From: Pristiophorus japonicus
Lineage: Eukaryota
Reading direction: 5' to 3'
Length of the DNA: 64,000 nucleotides
Assembly: GCF_044704955.1 (NCBI RefSeq)
Contig: NC_091983.1
Location: forward strand, 199,330,001-199,394,000
In this document: in pieces, positions 8,075 to 62,620 of the stretch
Position numbering within the stretch: the first letter of the stretch is position 1
Layout: every line of letters begins with the position of its first letter
Made by a program: the position numbers and the translations under genes
Notes under the pieces: generated by a model
What the model saw: only the letters and a program-made list of their open reading frames with translations
Databases searched by the model: none
What the model was told of the DNA's origin: nothing

Positions 8075-8238
8075 ATATATTTCAAAAAGGAACTGGATAA
8101 GTACCTGAAGGAAAAAAAATTGCAGGGCTATGGGAAAAGAGCGGGGGGAGTGAGACTGGCTGAAGTGCTCTTGCAGAGAACTGGCACGGGCCCAACGGGC
8201 CAAATGGCCTCCTTCTGTACTGTAACCATTCTATGATG
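8075..8238 (+). mobile_element. CR1 3' tail fragment
   Basis: Matches 25715-25866, ending GGCCTCCTTCTGTACTGTAACCATTCTATGAT. Confidence 0.8.
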
Positions 8239-20403: not shown

Positions 20404-22067
20404 GGGCTCAAAATTGGCCAGGAGTTGGACATTTTTTTGATTTTTCTGGAGTATCTTAAAAATCCACATTTTGCACATTCAATTTGCGCCAGTGTAAGTG
20501 AGTTAGTTAGGATTTTTTTTTAAGTTTAGTTTAGTTTTTTTCAAAAGGGGGCGTTACCAGCCACCTAGCCCGTTTTGGCCATTTAGGACACTTTGGCCAG
20601 CTAATAGTTACTCCAAACTAACTTAGGCCAGTGTATGTGGCCACTTGTGAAAACCCTTGCGGAGAGTTAAGAAATCAGTGCAGGTAGGTACATCGGAGGC
20701 CAGCAGAACTTAATGACTTGACTAAAGAATGTGAATAGGATCAAACAGCTATACAGGACATCATACGACAAACTTCGCAAAGTTAATTTACTATACAACA
20801 GAAGCATTCATGGAAACTTAAACTACAAAAATAAAACAAGTAAAAGATAGTTGAATTAAATTGCCCTAATCTCTCAACTAATTTAAACAACTATTTGTTT
20901 GCAATGATTACACTGGGCCAAGATCGAGCCCATATTATCTAAATAAAGTCTACTTCAATAAATAAGATATTCTCTCAGTGTTCCTCTGTCACTTATGTTC
21001 TTCTTTCACAATAGCACCAGGTAAATAGGTTTGACAAATGGTCACCACTATTCACGAGACAAAACATATTTACATAATTTTTTCAAAATATCCAAATAAA
21101 AAATATAAGTCCTACCCTACCTTCATCCTCAGTCCGCGAAGACAGCAGGCTAGCCTGTGCGGTAGAAATCATAGAATGGTTACCGCACGGAAGGCCTGAT
21201 CGAACCCATGCCGAATTAGAAACACTGACAGCAGCCAGTGACAATCAATCAAACCAAATGAAGATCCAGAATGGGGATTGCTTCTGAATGAATCCTCCCG
21301 GCGATGCAGATTTCAGTCCCAGGGATCTTCACTTCGGGATCAGCCTCAGGCCTGGGCTGATGAGTTCGAGGATGATTCTCCTTTTTCAGCAGGATTTGCT
21401 GGGCTGTATCCAGATTTCTTCTCTCCTTCTCTCTTCTTCCACATAACGCCACCGATGACCAGAGCAATCAGGGTGACGACAGCAATCACAATCCAACAAT
21501 CAAACAGAGATTTGTTCCCTTTGGAAATCCTGGAGTCACTCGGAATGTCCCGTCCCAGTCTCGATTCTTCACTCCTGTGTTGTCACTCTGCTCATACTGA
21601 CAGGAATAGGTGTCTCCATCTCGGATTCAATCTCAGCCCATCTCGTCAGCTGGTAGGTTCCGTCGTGGTTGGGCAGGATGCCACTGGATTCTGTGTCCCT
21701 GATCGGCTCGCGATTTCTCAGGAGGGTGACTTCGATATCACGAGGGTAAAAGGCCGTGACGAGGCAGGAGAGTTGGGTCGGTTTAATATTTGGCCACTCG
21801 GTCTGGGATAGGGGCAGGACACACACAGAGATGCATTGGAGCTACTGCGCACACACTCCAACGCGCATGTGCAGATGTCCCGGCACTGTTTTCAGTGCGG
21901 GATGCTGGCTCCGCTCACGACTCGACTGGCCACACTGCATGAAGACCTGGGAGAGGCAGGACAGCGACCAAAGTCGAGACATCTTTTTTCGGCGCGCTTG
22001 GAAACGTAGAAAAGCTGTGCAACTCGGGTGAATGCGCCAAAAATCAGCATGGGCCAATTTTGAGCCC
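20404..22067 (-). mobile_element. Non-autonomous Harbinger-type element carrying an MHC class I retrocopy
   Basis: Perfect 16-bp TIR GGGCTCAAAATTGGCC / GGCCAATTTTGAGCCC; both arms homologous to 61786-62620 and, in reverse, to 46055-46989. Confidence 0.88.
21164..21778 (-). pseudogene. Processed (intronless) MHC class I heavy-chain fragment: alpha3 C1-Ig + TM + cytoplasmic tail + 3'UTR + CR1 tail
   Basis: TQLSCLVTAFYPRDIEVTLLRNREPIRDTESSGILPNHDGTYQLTRWAEIES / fs / DGDTYSCQYEQSDNTGVKNRDWDGTFRVTPGFPKGTNLCLIVG / fs / IVIAVVTLIALVIGGVMWKKREGEKKSGYSPANPAEKGESSSNSSAQA*, stop at 21346-21348. Confidence 0.9.
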
Positions 22068-23744
22068 TAAAAGTGAGTTCTTAGGTGACTCAACAGTCCA
22101 ATACGGAAATTACAGTCTCTTGTCAGAGGCGGGACAGACAATCGTTGAAGGAAAGGGTGGGTGGGACTAGCTTGCCACACGCTTCTTCTGTTGCCTGCAC
22201 TTGGTTTCTGCATCCTCTCTCCGACGAGACTCGAGGTGCTCAGTGCCCTCCCAGATGCACTTCTTCCATTTAGGGCAGTCTTTGACCAGGGACTCCCAGG
22301 TGTCGGTGGGGATGTCGCATTTTTATCAGGCGACTTTGAGGATGTCCTTGAAACATTTCCTCTGACCACCTTGGGCTCGCTTACCGTGTAGGAGTAGAGC
22401 GCTTGCTTTGGGAGTCTTGTGTCAGGCATGCGAACAATGTGGCCCCGCCCAACGGAGCTGGTCAAGTGTGGTCAATGCTTTATTGCTGGGGATGTTGGCC
22501 TGATCGAGGACACTAATGTTGGTGTGTCTCTCCTCCCAGGGAATTTGCAGGATCTTGTGGAGACATCATTGGTGGTATTTCTCCAGCGATTTGAGGTGTC
22601 TACTATATATGGTCCACGTCTCTGAGCCATATAGGAGGGCAACTACAGAGGAATCTCCCCGTTATCAACCATTGGGAAAGTCATCGCTATGGATCCTCCG
22701 CAACTGCTTTTCCCCTGTGGCTGAGGAGCTCCTCCTGGAGTCACAGTGTGGATTTCGTCCTCTATGGGGTACAAGATTTTTACAGCGCGACAACTGTAAG
22801 AAAAATGCAGGGAACAGCACCAATCCTTGTACATGGCCTTCTTCGACCTTACAAAGGCCTTTGACACTGTCAACCGCGAGGGACGATGGAGCATCCTCCT
22901 CTGTTTCGGCTGCCCCAAATGTTCGTCACCAGCCTCTGCCTGCTCCACGACACATGCAAGCCGTGATCCTGACCAACGGATCCATCACAGATTCAATCCA
23001 CGTCCAGACCAGGGTCAAGCAGGGCTGTGTCATTGCCCAATCCTCTTCTCGATCTTCCTCGCTGCAATACTCCACCTCATACTCAACAAGCACCCTGCTG
23101 GAGTGGAACTAAACTACAGAACCAGTGGGAACCTGTTCATTCAGTGATAGTTGGGATGGTGGCTGACAGAATATTCAAAAATAAAGTGATTTGATTGGTT
23201 CATTTTCTCCTTTATTTTATTGGTAGCCTTCGCCGAAGGCCCATTTTTCATTTGTAGCTTTTTTTTTATAACTTCATGATTGGTGTTTCTCATTCTCGCT
23301 TGTTGTTTGCTTATTTGTACATCTCCTACCTCTTTAGCGGCACCCACCCGACCAGTGAGAGAACACCATCAGCAGCAGGTGGGGACAAAAGCAGGAGCTA
23401 GCCACCGCAGGAGGCAGTGCAAGCCATTCTAGGAGGGCGACGGATTCGAAGAGGGCGACTGCATTGACGTCACGAAAAACCAGGTAGACGACTGGAGCGT
23501 GGACGGGGGTGACTGAGGGAGACGCGGCTCACTCGGCCCGGTGCTGTGGCTGTTACTGACCCTGGACCCGCTCCCTGCACGGCAGTTTGGTTAGAAGAAG
23601 GTGGGTTGGGACATGGATCCCATGTTTTATCCTGAAGCTATTTCAGACGACGCAAGTTCCAGTTCTGCGCCAATATCTGTACGCAGCTACTTGAGAAAAA
23701 CGCGTATGACCAGGATAAAGTTCAGTGAGTGATCGGTGAGGTAA

Positions 23745-25331: not shown

Positions 25332-25866
25332 ATTGGTCCGATCTCAACTGGAGTATTGTGTCCAATTCTGGGCACCGCACTTTAGGAAGGATGTGAAGGC
25401 TTCAGAGAAGGTGCATAAAAGATTTACAAGAATGGTTCCAGGGATGAGGGACTTCAGTTACCTATATAAACTGGAGAAGCTGGGGTTGTTCTCCTTGGAT
25501 TTGATTGAGGTGTTCAAAATCATGAGGGGTCTGGACAGAGTAGAGAGAGAAACTGTTCACATTGGCAGAAGGATCGAGAACCAGAGGACACAGATTGAAG
25601 GTGATTGACAAAAGAACCAAAGGCAACATGAGGAAAAACTTTTTTATGCAGCGAGTGGTTAGGATCTGGAATGCAGTGTCTGAAAGAGTGGTGGAGGTAG
25701 ACTCAATCGTGGCTTTCAAAAGGGAACTGGATAAGTACCTAAAGGAAAAAAAAATTGCAGCGCTCCGAGGAAAGGGCGGGCCAAGCTTAAGTGCTCTTGC
25801 AGAAAGCCGGCACGGGCTTGATGGGTCGAATGGCCTCCTGTGTTGTAACCATTCTATGATTCTATA
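25332..25866 (+). mobile_element. CR1 3' end (ATTCTATG-tailed family)
   Basis: VRSQLEYCVQFWAPHFRKD; tail TGTAACCATTCTATGATTCTAT. Confidence 0.88.
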
Positions 25867-30077: not shown

Positions 30078-30981
30078 ACTAATCCACTTCTTTTAGTCAA
30101 AATCTCTAACTATAGCTTAATAAGCCCTTTCAATTATGCTTTGGGCGCAGGGCATGCAGAGTGCACAGTTTTGGATAGCTTGGTGAGCCTGAGCAACTGA
30201 AAAAACCTGCAGAACCTCAACTGCAATCAACTAAAGTCCAACAAAACCTGATGGCAGAGAAACAAATATGTTCAAATCCTTCTTTCTAATTTATGGCTTC
30301 TCATTTCTTTTAGATTTCACAAAAAATTCCATTGCATCTGTTCCTAATGCACTTCAGTCACAGAATATCTCAGATTCAGCATTTGCTGTACACAATTTTA
30401 CTGCGTGTATGTATGCCACCCAGGAGGATGGAGAACTATAGGGGTCAAGTTTCGGGCCGCGCCTAGAACGGCACAACCTCGATCTGGACGCCCGTTTATC
30501 GCGCCTAAAAGTGCAGAAAAATACCTCTTAATTCTCCAGCTCCTTGCTGGTCCCTGGGAGCTCGGCGCGGCTCGCAGACAGCAGCGGGGGGGGGGGGGGG
30601 GCGCGGAGCCACAGAGTCGCGCCGATTCTGCAAGTGGAGGGGGGGCGGGGCTAAGTTAAATGAGGCAACGTCGTGCTGGCAGCCCTGCGCGTGTGTGTTG
30701 GAGCGCACGCGCGCAGTAGCCCAGAAATATTGGCACTCAGCCATTTTTAAAGGGACTGAAGTGTTGATTTGTCTCGTGGACCCCTGGAAAGGCTTGGGAT
30801 TGAATTTTGGTGATTTTTGTGTGTCTGAAGGAGTGCTTTTAGCAGCACTGTTGAATAAATCACCTGCTGAAATCAGTGAGTGCTGCTTTTCATTGCTAAA
30901 CCTCCAGAACAGGTGCTGCATTGGTGCATGCAAATTAAAGACTGTGTGTTTTGAAAATAACAGTGTCAATTCAATACAGCA

Positions 30982-32335
30982 ATAGAACAACGTTCACCAA
31001 GAACAAAGAATTTCTTGCAAGAGGAAGGGGAGATATTAGTCAGCGTCATTCAGCAGAGATGGCAGGAGCTAGATAACAGCAACAGCATAAAAGTGCCATC
31101 TAAACAAATGAAGAAACGGTGGAACCAAGTTGCAGAAGATTACTGCGCAGTGGTGCATACCATGAGATCTGGAAGCCAGTGTAAAAAGAAATGGCACGAC
31201 CTTGGTCAAGTAGTTAGTGTAAGTAATAGTTCCATTTTTAATGTAATCATTATTGTAATGTGACTATCTGTATGTCCCACCCTGCAGAAAGATGCACTCA
31301 GTAAAAAGGTATAGTTTACTCTTTGCAGAAGAAATTGGCCCACAACAAAAGGGAAGCAACTCAATCAGGAGGCGTGCCCAATCTGCATCCACTGACACCC
31401 TTGGAACAGAGGGCAGCTGCTATGATGAGTGGTACATGGAGAAAAGCAATCAGTACAGCACAAGCTGGGTCGGCACGTGAGGAAGAGGGTAAAGTCCTGA
31501 AAATGCATCATGGCCCTTCAAATCAACCTGCTGTCTGGCCTATGTGTGAGAGTACTCATGCCACCCATCCTGCCCCCTCCCTTGCTGTTAAACATTTGAC
31601 TGTTCTGATGTATTTTGCAGCACATGATGATGATGATGCTGCTGCTGATGATGATGAAGACGACGCTGCCAACCCTGAGGATCCTGAAGATACAGAACAA
31701 GAACCAGTACAACCAGATGCGGACGATCCAGACTGGATGGTGGCGACGATGACTGAAATGTCTTCAGGGGAGAGCTTCCAAATTAATGTTTATGCACCCC
31801 CATTAAGAGGCATCAGAGTTTCAACCCCTTGCATAGGTTCTGGTTCCACCTTCCATGGTTTTGATTCCGACATTGCGGGTCCCAGTGGTGCTGGTGATAT
31901 AATGGAGCAGTTTACACCCATTCACCCACCATCCCAGCCCACACTCGAGTGTTGTCGTTTGAAACACCGAGCTTCCCGCCGTGCGTGCCCGCGCCTCCAA
32001 GAGTAGTGGTGCCACGAGGCAGACCTAGGCAGAGGAGAAGGAGATTGGAGACATGCTCTCCTAAGATGCAGCGTGCAACAGATGTGGCTCAGGTTGTGGC
32101 ATTGGGTATGGAGACCAATGAGCTTACCCGATCACTCATCGGCAGCGTCAGTGCAGTGGGTGAAGAGGTGATGGTCCTGACGGCAGAAATAGCAGTAATG
32201 ACACAGGAACTTAGGGAGGGAACATCCGAGGGAGTGCAATCGACGGCACAGGCTGTCAGAGAGGGCATGCAAGTGACGGCACAGGCTGTCAGGGAGGTAG
32301 CTGCTGCAATAAGGGCACACGGCCTAGCCAATTAA
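30982..32335 (+). pseudogene. Harbinger Myb/SANT-like DNA-binding protein; 3 exons (30982-31218, 31329-31488, 31621-32335)
   Basis: RTKNFLQEE..LV..I..RW..L....KKRWNQVAE......RSGSQCKKKWHDL; GT-AG introns 31219-31328 and 31489-31620; start codon apparently ATG>ATA; frameshift near 31950; acidic linker and coiled-coil-like C-terminus. Confidence 0.85.
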
Positions 32336-32819
32336 ATGACACCCCCATGAAGAAGTGAACATTCACTGAGATGTGGATGAGAGATAGTTGCAGCCTTTGT
32401 TCTTGATGTAGCTCTAGTAACATTTTTCAAATTGAAATTGTTTTGTAAGTTTTGTAACTTTACAACTTATAAATGATCTTAGGGTTTTTAAGTGTTCTTA
32501 TAGTATAAATGCTCTCACATTTTGTATTTTATTTAATTTTGCATCTAAAAAGTGATCTTGAAGTTTGAGTGATCTTAAGAGTATAAGATCTTTCACATTG
32601 AAATTGTTTTGTAACTTTACAAGTTTATAAGTAATCTTCAAGAGTCATATTAAAAAGTAAAGTTTGATACAACAAATATTTTATTACAGTGACGTTAACT
32701 TTTCAATAAAATATTTTTTCATTAAAACTGTTTCATGTTCCATTAACACAACACAACATAGGAACACTGCAAAGAATAAACATGTCCATGCGCAACAGTT
32801 GTCGCAGAGCCCTCAAGCA

Positions 32820-34027
32820 TCAGTAGTTGAAGCGTTCACGGATGAGCTGCTGGCGCAGGGCTCGAGCAATCGTTAAAGGAGCACGATGGACGTCCCTCCT
32901 CCGACCTCGTGCTCCGGCATCAGGCACTTGCATGCTTTCCTGATCGTCGTTATCATCCACATCCTGCTCTTCCGTAATACTATCATGCACTGGACGCTCA
33001 CGTGGGTCTTCTGGTTCCACTACCAGCTCCTGCTGCCTCATGATGCCTAAGTTATGGAGCATGCAGCACAGTGAACTGACCGACAATCTGAGGAGAGTAT
33101 TGCAAGTGGCCTCCGGAATGGTCCAGGCATCGGAAACGCTGTTTCAATATACCAATGATCCCCTCAATGATGCTGCGCGTTGCAATGTGCGCCATGTTGT
33201 ATTGATGGTCAGCTTCTGTCCATGTCATGCATAGGGGCGTCATGAGCCAGGTGGTCGAGCCGTACCCTTTGTCTCCCAGTAGCCAGCTCTGCCCTTCTGG
33301 CTGCTTTTCAAACATGTCAGATATAACAGTGTCGCGTAGGATGAACGCATCATGGGTGCTGCCAGGGTATCTCTCATCGACTGACATGACGCGCTGCTTG
33401 TCATCACACACGAGCTGCACATTGATAGAGTGGAAACCTTTTCTATTCCTGTACTGCTCGGAATCCTCCACAGGTGCTCGCAAGGCGATGTGGGTACAAT
33501 CAATGCAGCCCTGTACCTTTGGGAAGCCAGCAATCCTGAAGAAGCCCACAGCTCTCTCATGGATCGCTTGTGCAGTCATTGGGAACTTGATGAAGTCATT
33601 CCTCCGCACATACAGTGCAGCCGTGACCTGGTAAACGCAGGCATGTATTGCACGTTGAGAGATGGCGCACACATCTCCAGTTGTAGCCTGAAACAATCCC
33701 GAGGCATCGAAGGCAAGTGCAGCTGTTACCTTCACTTCAACAGACAAGGCAGTTGGCGTTCTGCTTCTGGGCAGAAAATCTGCTCTCAGCAGATCACAGG
33801 TCTCAGCGAGAACTTCTCTACGGAAATGCAGCCTTTTGACAATCAGCCTCGCTCATGTCCAGGTACGAGCACCTGGCTCGATATTGCCGACGTGGGCATG
33901 GTCTCCTGCCCATCAGCCTACAGGCTATGACGTTCCTGGTGCGGTGAGCTCTAATCAATTCTCTCCTATGCAGTGAATTGCTGGCGAACCATTGCATAAT
34001 CCGTGGTGTTTACAATGCAGCACCCAT
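32820..34027 (-). pseudogene. Harbinger (HARBI1-like) DDE transposase, disabled
   Basis: GCIDCTHI (D), YRNRKGFHSINVQLVCD, PGSTHDAFI, LLGDKGY (D), RSIIEGIIGILKQRFRCL (E), CCMLHN; early stop at codon 6 and frameshifts. Confidence 0.93.
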
Positions 34028-34079
34028 TCTGCAAATTTAAGTTTCAACCTGGCTATCTGGCTGCCTCTCCCTGTCCCTG

Positions 34080-34400
34080 GCTGAATGGCCTCAGTCTCCC
34101 TCGCAGCTCGAAGGCTGCTTGCTGTGTCTTCGGTTGCCGTCAGCCATTGCCGCCGCCCCATCCCGTGGCCGAATGTCCTCAGCTTCCCTCGCAGCTCGAA
34201 AGCTGCTTGCTGTTTCTTCGGCTGCCGTCGAGCCACTGACGCCGCCCCTGTCTCCTACATGGAAGTAAGGACTGCCTGAAGCACCGCAGCTCAAAGGCTG
34301 TTTGTTGCCGTTGTTGTTGGGCTGCCGTCGAGTCACTGATGCCGCCCGTCTCCAACATGGGAGGCCTGCCTGAAGCACCGCAGCTCGAAGGCTGCTGCTG
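34080..34400. repeat. About 4 diverged 90-100-bp tandem units inside the Harbinger, upstream of the transposase
   Basis: Recurring GCAGCTCGAAGGCTGC...GCTGCCGTCGAGCCACTGA. Confidence 0.75.
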
Positions 34401-35259
34401 CTTCTCAGTTAAGTTAGTATGGAGTAAGTTTTCACTGCCTAAACTTTCAAAACAGGCGTAAGTGGCCGGACATGCCCCCTTTTGAAAAAAAAATCTGTTC
34501 CAAAATTAAACTGTTCTAACTGACTAGAACTGGAGCAAACCAAATGCCGAGAATTGCAATTTCTAAGATACTCCATTCTAAACCAGTTGCTCCAAAAAAA
34601 TAGGAGCAACTCAGGTCGAAACTTGACCCCATAGAGTTTGCTGCTACAAAACATTTGGCGAGTAGTGCATATGCCTAGAATTGGCACCAGTTATAACTTG
34701 TAATTAATTTAATTATTTATTTGGTTACTGGAACAGGAAGTATAACTCGCAATTTAAATTTAAGATATAGCTTTCCTTTGAAATTTAACTTCCAATATTA
34801 TCGCATAATGACTATTAAGAATACCAAACTACACCAAATGTATGCCAAGAATATGAAGTGTAGAATGATACCAGGTTTTGGTTGGGGGGGGGGGGGGGGG
34901 GGGGAAGAGAAAACACGACGAGACCTCCTCCATTCAGTAGCTTTACTGTATGCAAAATTAACAATCCTCCAACCAGCCGCAAATGCAAATGTTGCAAGAA
35001 AAAAAACCTGCATTTATAATCGAACTTCACATTCTCAGTATGTACCAAAGCACTTCACAGTCTATAAAGTACATCTGAAGTGTAGTTACTGTTGCAATGT
35101 AGGGAATTTGGTGTTCAATGAAATGCTTACCTGCTTTCTAGTAAAGGTTACAGAAGAGGCTAATCACCAAGCAAAGCCTATGTCACTTGAGAATTATCAG
35201 ATAGACAGCCATTGTTCAAATTCCAATTTTACAGCAATCAGAAGGTTAGGTTGTCACCT

Positions 35260-59160: not shown

Positions 59161-61785
59161 TAAATGTGGGCCCATTGAAGGAAGAGACAGGAGAAATTAT
59201 AATGGGCAATAAGAAAATGGCATTAAACAAATACTTTGTATCTGTCTTCATGGTAGAAAACACAAAAAACATTCCAGAAATAATGGAGAACCAAGGGTCT
59301 ATAGAGAATGAGGAACTTAAAGAAATCAGTATAAGTAAAGACATAGTATTTGAAGAAATTAATAGGACTAAGTGGCGACAAATCCCCTGGACCTGACGAC
59401 TTCTCATCCATTCAGAGAGGTAGCTGCAGAGATAGTAGATGCACTAGTATTCATCTTCTGGAATTCCCCAAATTCTAGAACAGTTCCCAAGGATTGCAAG
59501 GTAGCAAATATAACCCGGCTATTTAAGGAATGAGGAAGAGGAAAAAACAGGGAACTATAGCCCAATTAGCCTGACATCAATAGTAGGCAAAAGGCTAGAA
59601 TCTATTATTAGGGATGTGGTAAAAGGCACTTAGAGAATCGTAATATGATTAGGCAGAGTCAACATGGTTTTGTAAAAGGGAAATCAAGTTTGACAAATCT
59701 TTGAGTTTTTTTTGAAGAGGTAACTAATAAGATGGATAAGGGGGAAACCAGTGGATGAAATGTATTTGGATTTTCAAAAAGCATTCGATAAGGTTAACAT
59801 GCAGCTACACAAGCAATTAGGAAAGCAAATGGTATGTTAGCTTTTATTACAAAGGGATTAGAGTATAAGTGTAAAGTCTAACTGCAATTATACAAGACAT
59901 TGGTGAGGCCACACCTGGGGTACTGTGTACAGTTCTGGTCTCTTTACCTAAGGAAATATTAACTTGCCTTAGAGGGAGTGCAACAAAGGTGCACTAGATT
60001 GGTTCCTGGGATGAGGGGATTGCCCTATGAGATTGAGTAGACTAGGCCTATATTCCATAGAGAAGGTGGTGATCTAATTGAAACATATAAAATTCTTAAG
60101 GGGCTTGACAGGGTTAATGCCGAGAAGATGCTTCCCCTGGCTGGGGAATCTATAACATGGGGTCTCAATCTCAAAATAAAGGGTCGGCCATTTAGGACTG
60201 AGATGAGGAGAAATTTCTTCACTCAATGGGATGTGAATTTTTGGAATTCTCGACCATAGAGAGCTGTGGATGCTCAGTCGTTGAGTACATACAAGACGGA
60301 GGTCAATAGATTTTTGGGAACGAAGGGAATTAAGGGATATTGGGATAGTGCGAGAAGGTGGAGTTGAGGTAGAAGATCAGCCATGATCTTGTTACAGGCT
60401 CAAAGGGCCAAATGGCCCACTCCAGCTCCTATTCTTTATGTTCTTGTATTCTTTCTGAAAAAAGCTAATCCTCCTTACTCGCCCATTACAATTCCCAATT
60501 TACTTTTCTGGCGGTGTTATGAGGTTGCTGGCAACCAGATCATCTAATCTAAAAGGGCTTGCTGCAAACTTTCAATGGCCACTTTCTTTGGCTGATACCA
60601 GGTAGAAACCTAGTAAAATGATGCAGGAAGTGTTTTGTCACCACTCGCATGTCATTCCCATACAATTTAAATTACCCACTTATTTTGGAGTGCTTCCTGC
60701 CTCATTCAAAGGATGTTCCAGCAAATGTGCAAAAGGGCTTACACCGGAATTATGAGTTGCCTCTTTAATTTCCTCTGCCTAATGCCCCAGAAACAAGCAA
60801 GTTACACCTCAGAAAATCAGCTCCATACTCTTTATAAAACAGGAACTAGGGGTGTACTTATGTCTGAAGTAGATAGAATGCAATTAGTTAACTGTTCATA
60901 TGACTAAAGTCTTACTTCTTGACAATTATTGGACTTGTGTCTTGGTTATTTGGTACAATCAGCAGTTGAATTTCTTTTAAAGTTGCAGATGCCCACTTTG
61001 CTTTGCTTTTTTTAAAAAGTAGTTCTATGTTAGGGTTCTTTGATCATCTGCCAGGAGAAGCCAATTAAACCTTAGCTCAAGGGTAACTGAACCTAAATTA
61101 CAACTGGTAAGAGTTGGAAGTTCATGAACCATTTAAGCATCATGTTCAGCTAACTAAAACTTCTACTTTTAGAAATGTGTGCAAGCCTATCAAGGTTTTC
61201 TAAACATTTGTGCTTTTGCTTTTAACTTTTTGGTGAATTTAGTACTTTTCAGTGAGATGTTGGTGTTGGGGAAAGGAATGGTTTCTCATTATGGGCATCC
61301 AGGGTCAGTATCAAACATTCCCAGATCAAGTATAGCATAATTAGATGCTCTGTTTACTTTGCCCCAAAATATGGTTCAGCCCTAACCTCGGAAGAACACC
61401 CCTACTGAATCAGTGTAACATTTCTATTTCCAACACCAGCCACCCTGATTGTAGTAATTGGTACTGATTTAAGGATTGTTTCGTGCTTTGCGCCCATGCC
61501 CAATAGGAGCCAGATTGAAAATGCATAAACTCATTTGGCATAGGATCATAACTGCTTGCAGACAGAGGACATTTACATTCTGTCAGTTATGGACTGGATC
61601 ACAGTAAAGTATCATGCATTAATAGATGCTAAAGTATATTCATAAAACTTTAACAGGGATTGTTATATGGTGCAGAAAGTACTTGCAACTGAGCTTTTCA
61701 GCTTAAGTGACACTGTCACCTCCCTATGATAGCAAAGAGTGTAAATTTAAAAACCTGACTTTGTTGTGCACACACTAACAATACA

Positions 61786-62620
61786 GGGCCCAAATTTCCC
61801 CAGGAGTTGCTCTGGTCTTTTTTGGAGCAACTTGATTTTTCTGGGAGTATCTTTTTAGTTGCAATTCTGGCCATTTAATTTGCATCAGTGTAAGTGAGTT
61901 AGTTAGGTTTTTTTTTTCAAAAGGGGGCATTACCAGCCACTTGCACCTGTTTTGGCCATTTAAGCAAGATTAGCCAGCTTCAAACTGACTTAGACCAGCG
62001 TAAGTGGGCACTCCTGTACGTTCAGAAAAACCTTGTGGTGACGTAAGAAATCAGTGCAGGCAGCCAGAGGTTCAGGGGAGGAGGGGGGGAACCTTGCAAA
62101 GCACTAAACACCTTCACAACATTAAAGAAGCATAAATACATTTAAAGCACCAAGCACTAAACAAAACAGTACATTTGCACCAAGCACTAAAAGTAATCAG
62201 CAATTAATTAATAAAAAATAGATGGAACCCTGCACCTAAAGCACCAAGACCAAAGTAATATGCAATCAATCAGTAAATAACAAATAAAAAATAGAAGTCC
62301 TACCTTAGGGAACGCAGCAGGCCACCAATGAGGGAGCCCATTCGGCCAGGTGCTTTGGGCCCCTCCCAGACAGCCTGCAGCGCGCACTCAGATTCGGCCT
62401 GCCAAGATCTACTGCACATGCGCGCAGACTCTAGCATGCATGTGCAGAGGTCCCGGCATGGTTTTCAGCGCCAGGACCAGGCTCCACCCCAATCCACGCT
62501 ACACCATCACAGAGGAGAGGCCAGAATCGCGAGGAAGATTTTCGGCACGCTTGGAGGCAGACATAAGCGGCGCACCTCGGGTGAGAACGCCAGAAAAAGG
62601 GGTTGGAGAAATTTGAGCCC
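61786..62620 (-). mobile_element. Non-autonomous Harbinger-type element, closest cargo-free relative of 20404-22067
   Basis: TIR GGGCCCAAATTTC / GAAATTTGAGCCC, flanks ACA/ATA; shares CAAATAAAAAATAxAAGTCCTACC with 21093-21116. Confidence 0.88.

Follow-up and report, generated by a model that had tools for sequence, protein, structure and literature searches.

An MHC class I retrocopy with a CR1 3' end inside a multicopy Harbinger-like element of Pristiophorus japonicus

LINE-tailed retroposons are among the closest described counterparts of the sequences discussed here, and platypus snoRTE is reportedly one such non-autonomous retroposon. In TguSINE1/PittSINE (PMC5729268), and in shark HE1/HER1 and other SINE–LINE pairs (PMC3747384), the copies derive from a host RNA that is equipped with the hairpin and repeat of a LINE 3' end, and they terminate in that repeat. 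Our copies are alike in this respect; however, their passenger is a spliced protein-coding mRNA, the tail is internal (~385 nt before the transcript end), and they stem from a functioning immune gene rather than a Pol III master. A second point of comparison is provided by L1-type processed pseudogenes as outlined in PMC5470649, which are likewise intron-free, 5'-truncated, dispersed, mostly decayed, and occasionally intact; the copies described here differ from these in lacking poly(A) and a consistent target-site duplication (TSD). In the same outline, sequence-specific recognition by CR1 limits the RNAs that can hitchhike—a limit that one class I gene bypasses here.

Multicopy Pack-TIRs and Pack-MULEs, as presented by Tan et al. 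(2021, PMC8277862), are alike in that a host gene fragment lies within TIRs, has been amplified with distinct TSDs, and is decaying. In contrast to the Pack-TIRs of that account, the cargo here is spliced cDNA, a class that the pipeline described there discards, and whereas the multicopy families found there in 100 reference genomes number four and are small, the loaded element reaches at least 45 copies; the word "shark" occurs nowhere in the main text. The organization of elasmobranch MHC class I is described by Verissimo et al. (2023, PMC10751288); in keeping with it, most of the intron-containing class I exons that we found cluster in one region, on contig C19 at 40–57 Mb. According to that account, elasmobranchs have no class I genes outside the MHC, and "retro", "intron", and "pseudogene" have zero occurrences each in its main text; we find, by comparison, eight intact intron-free class I frames on contig C3. 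Among the openly accessible papers listed by a literature search, none was seen to describe class I retrocopies in sharks or the copying of an mRNA via an internal CR1 tail. Here we describe a locus in a 64,000-nucleotide stretch of P. japonicus DNA (hereafter the window), together with its parent gene and its relatives elsewhere in the genome.

The MHC insert and its host element

At 21166–21791, on the minus strand, the window holds a copy of MHC class I sequence that runs from alpha3 to the 3' UTR. The first-pass annotation called this a retrocopy, and rightly so: compared with the spliced parent on C19, it is identical at 568 of 626 positions (90.7%) across four exon junctions (21553, 21428, 21392, and 21344), and all four parent introns are precisely absent. 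The 5'-truncated alpha3 exon (21554–21791) includes the first cysteine codon (21766–21764) and matches class I structures, the best single-domain match being PDB 6lup_A (E 3.4e-13), which we take to be a nurse shark molecule. It is joined by splicing to the transmembrane exon (21429–21553), which is followed by two cytoplasmic exons of 36 nt (21393–21428) and 48 nt (21345–21392, with the stop TGA at 21348–21346) and by the last-exon 3' UTR (21214–21344), all on the minus strand. The coding remnant has two frameshifts, one of 1 nt in each of the alpha3 and transmembrane exons; the cargo is decayed, and the window copy is dead. Truncation before the first alpha3 cysteine had been noticed at the outset and stands, but the junction lies at 21791/21792, 26 nt before the cysteine codon (21766), and not at 21782.

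The insert closes with a CR1 3' end derived from the parent UTR (21163–21213, minus strand). This tail had been placed correctly at 21213–21164, and it lies 132 nt past the stop; poly(A) was looked for at the 3' end of the insert and is absent, the octamer being the last element. The 132 nt agree with the roughly 130 nt of 3' UTR first counted, but the UTR originally measured 254 nt and has lost 115 nt by a deletion between two TGTTT motifs (microhomology at 21224–21220). Within the tail, a hairpin with a 7-nt deletion precedes the ATTCTATG repeat, which starts at 21177; the stretch ATTCTATG-ATTTCTA (21177–21163) is the ATTCTRTG octamer repeat, and its last CTA (21165–21163) is common to tail and target. 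ATTCTRTG with a hairpin is described as a CR1 signature in PMC8665684. The predicted folding energy of the hairpin before the repeat is -19.2 kcal/mol in the parent tail and -9.6 kcal/mol in the window copy, where the 7-nt deletion would weaken it. A reference CR1 3' end in the window (25808–25866, plus strand) stands behind a decayed ORF2 C-terminus that resembles that of the window's RT-bearing LINEs and is presumably CR1-type; Pfam gave no match on the LINE C-terminus. The insert's tail matches this end and 8185–8238, as first proposed, and the parent tail is 87.5% identical to 25808–25866 over 56 nt.

A multicopy, non-autonomous TIR element of 1664 bp (20404–22067, minus strand), overlooked by the first-pass annotation, carries the insert as its cargo. 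A 16-bp TIR pair bounds the element—left at 22052–22067 (GGGCTCAAAATTGGCC on the minus strand) and right at 20404–20419 (plus strand)—and the cargo is flanked by a host left arm (21792–22051) and a host right arm (20420–21162; both minus strand), the latter 87–90% identical to three empty elements (L033, L035, and L046). Among most of the matched loci, similarity continues beyond both ends of the MHC part, out to the TIRs. PIF/Harbinger elements are recognized by TIRs starting GGG and by a 3-bp A/T-rich TSD, and both features are found in this family. Of the 28 elements whose two ends are in register, 11 have an exact 3-bp TSD (permutation mean 1.7; equalled in 0 of 5000 permutations), while control lengths of 2, 4, and 5 nt give 4, 1, and 0 elements; the other 17, among them the window element (TTA/GAA), have no exact TSD. 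We have filed the host as Harbinger-like. A Harbinger-type element with a transposase is also found in the window, at 30441–34630 (transposase at 33055–33852, minus strand, DDE_Tnp_4; GGGGTCAAG TIRs; ATA TSD). One of its ends is 68% like the host end over 180 nt, and its TIRs are related but not identical; it is an apparent relative and at most a candidate mobilizer. Pfam gave no match on 31305–32003.

Several further observations concern this family of elements. The window also contains a diverged empty relative of the host (61785–62620) and related ends near 1532, 5843, 12095, 13240, and 46770, and the TIR element itself lies within a decayed LINE, RTE-like by eye, near the 3' end of which it has inserted (22068–23100 and below 20403). 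The flanks of 29 TIR elements have a target preference that extends past the TSD, as a loose palindrome (C/T at -4, G/A at +4). On contig C10 (L180, 44.105–44.114 Mb), the octamer of one retrocopy is interrupted by an element related to this TIR family, and TIR-like starts follow the copies L155 and L161; Harbinger elements may favour the octamer as a target.

The tetramer CGGT had initially been taken as a TSD around the retrocopy. Both copies are literally present (21160–21163 and 21779–21782), but the TSD reading is rejected: the upper copy sits 9–12 nt inside parent-derived sequence, because the parent alpha3 exon reads CAAATATTAAACCGACCC and so encodes it. By chance, some 4-mer is common to two random 25-nt stretches 77% of the time. 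Empty hosts provide a second view of the site; the unfilled junction, used as a search pattern, has 73 exact matches (reversed control 0); 20 were fetched, and the 12 of these that had both TIRs were aligned. In four of the 12 (L033, L035, L037, and L046), which make up the subfamily with this junction, window position 21792 is joined straight to 21165; they hold a single ACCG and match the right arm at 85–90%, and the empty site reads GAGTGGC-C-TACCGC. No target-site duplication at cargo insertion is seen in the aligned empty hosts, only short junction overlaps—at the 5' junction one C (21792) common to host and parent, and at the 3' junction 3 nt, CTA, where the octamer repeat overlaps the target.

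The loaded element occupies at least 45 loci (43 from the union of searches, plus L177 and L178), 26 of them inspected and 19 recognized by junction pattern; in the DNA search, 40 of the 115 candidates were scored, and these yielded 41 matches. The same 5' junction pattern is found in 15 loaded loci. In the tree, the 16 cargoes included group together next to the parent in a clade of star-like shape (UFBoot 86), with a mean pairwise identity of 91%; 15 of the 16 are 88–91% identical to the parent, while other intron-free copies are at 81–86%, and 15 of 16 have a frameshift or stop within ~420 coding nt. One tree member, L013, includes an unrelated CR1 piece that gives it a long branch, and it was left out of the decay-rate estimate; dN/dS of cargo against parent (0.49–1.02) was dropped as evidence of selection, the parent's own branch being mixed in. 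The CR1 tail is kept in three of the 26 inspected loaded elements (the window element L001, L023, and L011, the last with the full UTR), and 30 loaded loci have one common tail-less junction, left by a deletion that starts in the UTR and reaches host sequence. As in a Pack-TIR, a gene fragment lies between TIRs, in several copies with different flanks, with its parent elsewhere; unlike a captured DNA fragment, the cargo has been spliced, and the CR1 repeat is its end point. The host behaves like a Pack-TIR that was likely loaded through RNA, and the window locus is not itself the site of retro-insertion, but a DNA-transposed copy of one older event.

The parent gene and the 3' ends of its copies

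A pattern spanning the boundary of UTR and tail gave 26 matches. One of them lies in the C19 cluster, where class I alpha1/alpha2 exons are found 11.5 kb upstream of it. This is the parent, an intron-containing class I gene of classical type at C19:54.657–54.670 Mb, with seven exons mapped (the leader is not among them). Classical class Ia molecules anchor peptides through Y7, Y59, R84, F123, T143, K146, W147, Y159, and Y171; the parent frame is open, and all of these residues can be read by eye in its translation. Its last exon holds a 56-nt CR1 end 254 nt past the stop and ~385 nt before transcripts stop. Three public runs, from one study and with no RNA label on record, have joints at the parent introns and little intron cover, and they cover the tail and ~385 nt past it. 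The tail is internal in the parent mRNA, because this cover reaches ~385 nt beyond it and the A run that ends one retrocopy (L138) sits at the same point. Inspection of the parent 3' UTR had been proposed as the way to tell cis-licensing from template switching; since the parent has the same CR1 end at the same position in its last exon, cis-licensing is supported and template switching is not needed. The copies are heritable, which points to expression of the parent in the germline or early embryo.

Where do the copies of this gene end? A search that used only the pre-tail UTR, and was hence not biased by the tail, gave 40 matches of 50 candidates. Thirty were fetched: besides the parent and a single loaded element, they include four copies from C3, and the remaining 24 stand alone. 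Of these 24 stand-alone copies, 22 end from -7 to +4 nt of the repeat end, one has a decayed tail, and one runs 125 nt beyond, while the 5' ends are scattered. Eighteen copies, eight of them overlapping the 24, were found by the tail's first bases (a search biased toward the tail). With L176, this makes 35 inspected loci and 34 events, L131 and L134 being duplicates, and two pass the tail. When the C3 cluster and the loaded family are added as one event each, plus two post-tail loci, 38 independent insertion events are traced—34 tail-ended and four with sequence past the tail. The survey suggested at first reading, for other retrocopies ending in (ATTCTATG)n, has found many. Priming at the tail is not exclusive, as the four events that pass it demonstrate; post-tail UTR is found in only four loci other than the parent, including L138.

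The octamer run is longer than the parent's in L150, L152, and L159, and L155 and L161 are perhaps interrupted, as L119 is. Stand-alone copies have no consistent TSD; the best junction repeats of 30 loci are 2–5 nt long, at scattered offsets. Two housekeeping genes served as controls, with one profile search each, so that the counts are lower bounds: GAPDH has only two intron-split loci and 0 stray fragments, and RPS6 has its own gene and one fragment, of 43 codons. Three of the past-tail copies (L137, L139, and L140) run into a similar short sequence that the parent UTR does not contain today; the 3' end may have been different in an older allele or in a paralogue. A sister class I gene with a long UTR has left retrocopies as well, and all four inspected (L066, L067, L074, and L080) end in a (GAT)n tail, which we take to be RTE-type. 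Class I exons are also found off C19, at C11:148.44–148.55 Mb (L070, L079, and L081; one alpha1/alpha2 pair is intron-split), and are a possible source of the (GAT)n-tailed copies.

Intact intron-free genes on C3

Nine near-identical, intron-free class I genes from one event lie in both orientations at C3:316.6–319.3 Mb (L051–L053, L055–L064). Eight of the nine have an open 355-aa frame that includes the leader, and the ninth, L062, has a 20-nt deletion; each one checked ends in the same CR1 tail. These genes are 86% like the parent and keep the anchor residues except for F123L. At the decay rate of the cargoes, the chance of an open frame is P 0.0004 over the whole stem branch, 0.02 over half, and 0.14 over a quarter; the result hinges on the post-insertion share of that branch, and selection is only suggested. 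Contigs of 177–560 nt, at least 97% alike, match the C3 genes in all three public runs, where DNA carry-over from nine copies is possible. We considered these genes as the source of the transposon cargo and rejected them, the cargo being ~86% like the C3 genes and 88–91% like the C19 parent. Each C3 gene fetched is flanked by long simple satellites. A TPR-repeat frame (L055:9077–9571), matched by TPR families only in Pfam and presumably IFIT-like, lies ~4 kb from one C3 gene; an interferon-induced neighbourhood could regulate these genes.

Route of loading and its meaning

We consider it very probable that a CR1 RT copied the parent mRNA from its internal tail into a Harbinger-like element, and that DNA transposition then carried the product to at least 45 loci. 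The steps may be pictured as follows. A CR1 stub would have landed in the 3' UTR of a class I gene, the result of which is what we see today; CR1 ORF2p is probably recruited by the hairpin and octamer of this stub, with priming inside the mRNA and copying toward the mRNA 5' end with variable truncation. One such event would have entered a Harbinger-like element, presumably primed on the 3-nt CTA overlap and stopping 37 nt into alpha3. Transposition, by a putative transposase, would then have spread the loaded form, and deletions would later have stripped the tail from most copies; heritable copies would need access to the germline or early embryo. The 3'-end positions and the two housekeeping controls point to CR1 ORF2p as the enzyme. 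The priming step is assigned to it because of the end positions and because tail recognition is found in other stringent LINEs, such as the tail binding described for ZfL2 ORF2p (PMC4176376).

Could the TIR element instead have captured, by gap repair, the DNA of an existing intron-free retrocopy, reverse transcription having happened earlier and elsewhere? The short overlaps at both junctions (1 and 3 nt) would suit this, as such overlaps are described for 67.6% of Pack-TIRs (PMC8277862); more than 30 intron-free donors exist, and with 40 of 115 candidates scored, an unseen DNA donor is possible. However, the cargo stops exactly at the octamer repeat, without donor flank, and in the tree the sister position to the loaded clade is taken by the parent and by none of the 14 other intron-free copies included. 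The identities point the same way—88–91% to the parent in 15 of 16 cargoes, against 81–86% for other copies—and we regard capture by gap repair as unlikely. Template switching, in which RT began on CR1 RNA and moved to the MHC mRNA, was one of two routes offered by the first-pass annotation and has been proposed for CR1-tailed bird SINEs (in the account of PMC5729268). It is very improbable here, as the intron-containing parent already has the same UTR–tail junction and independent copies on many contigs share it, where separate switches would differ. Least credible of all is a separate later insertion of the tail into the window copy, which the absence of the tail from other copies was to indicate: only three of the 26 inspected loaded elements keep it and 30 loci are tail-less, but their junction is a later deletion inside the transposon, from UTR into host, and the parent, L011 (full UTR), and L023 hold the tail at the same place.

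The probable copying of the parent mRNA from its internal CR1 tail bears on a wider question, since strict tail recognition by CR1 is the standing explanation for the few retrogenes in CR1-dominated genomes. The parent provides a natural test—a gene with a 56-nt UTR tail has at least 34 tail-ended insertions, against 0 and 1 from two housekeeping genes. A broader reading, which we offer tentatively and with somewhat less than even confidence, is that, in genomes without relaxed L1-type enzymes, any host gene whose 3' UTR has acquired a LINE tail is thereby licensed as a source of retrocopies; this licence would have been used twice for class I here (CR1 and RTE-type), and would have given rise both to an expressed, selected C3 cluster outside the MHC and to an RNA-loaded DNA-transposon family. 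Such a licence predicts which genes get copied, and the outcome can be counted genome-wide. For sharks themselves, intact class I frames outside the MHC run contrary to the published elasmobranch statement, and the more than 80 dispersed class I fragments can confound shark MHC typing.
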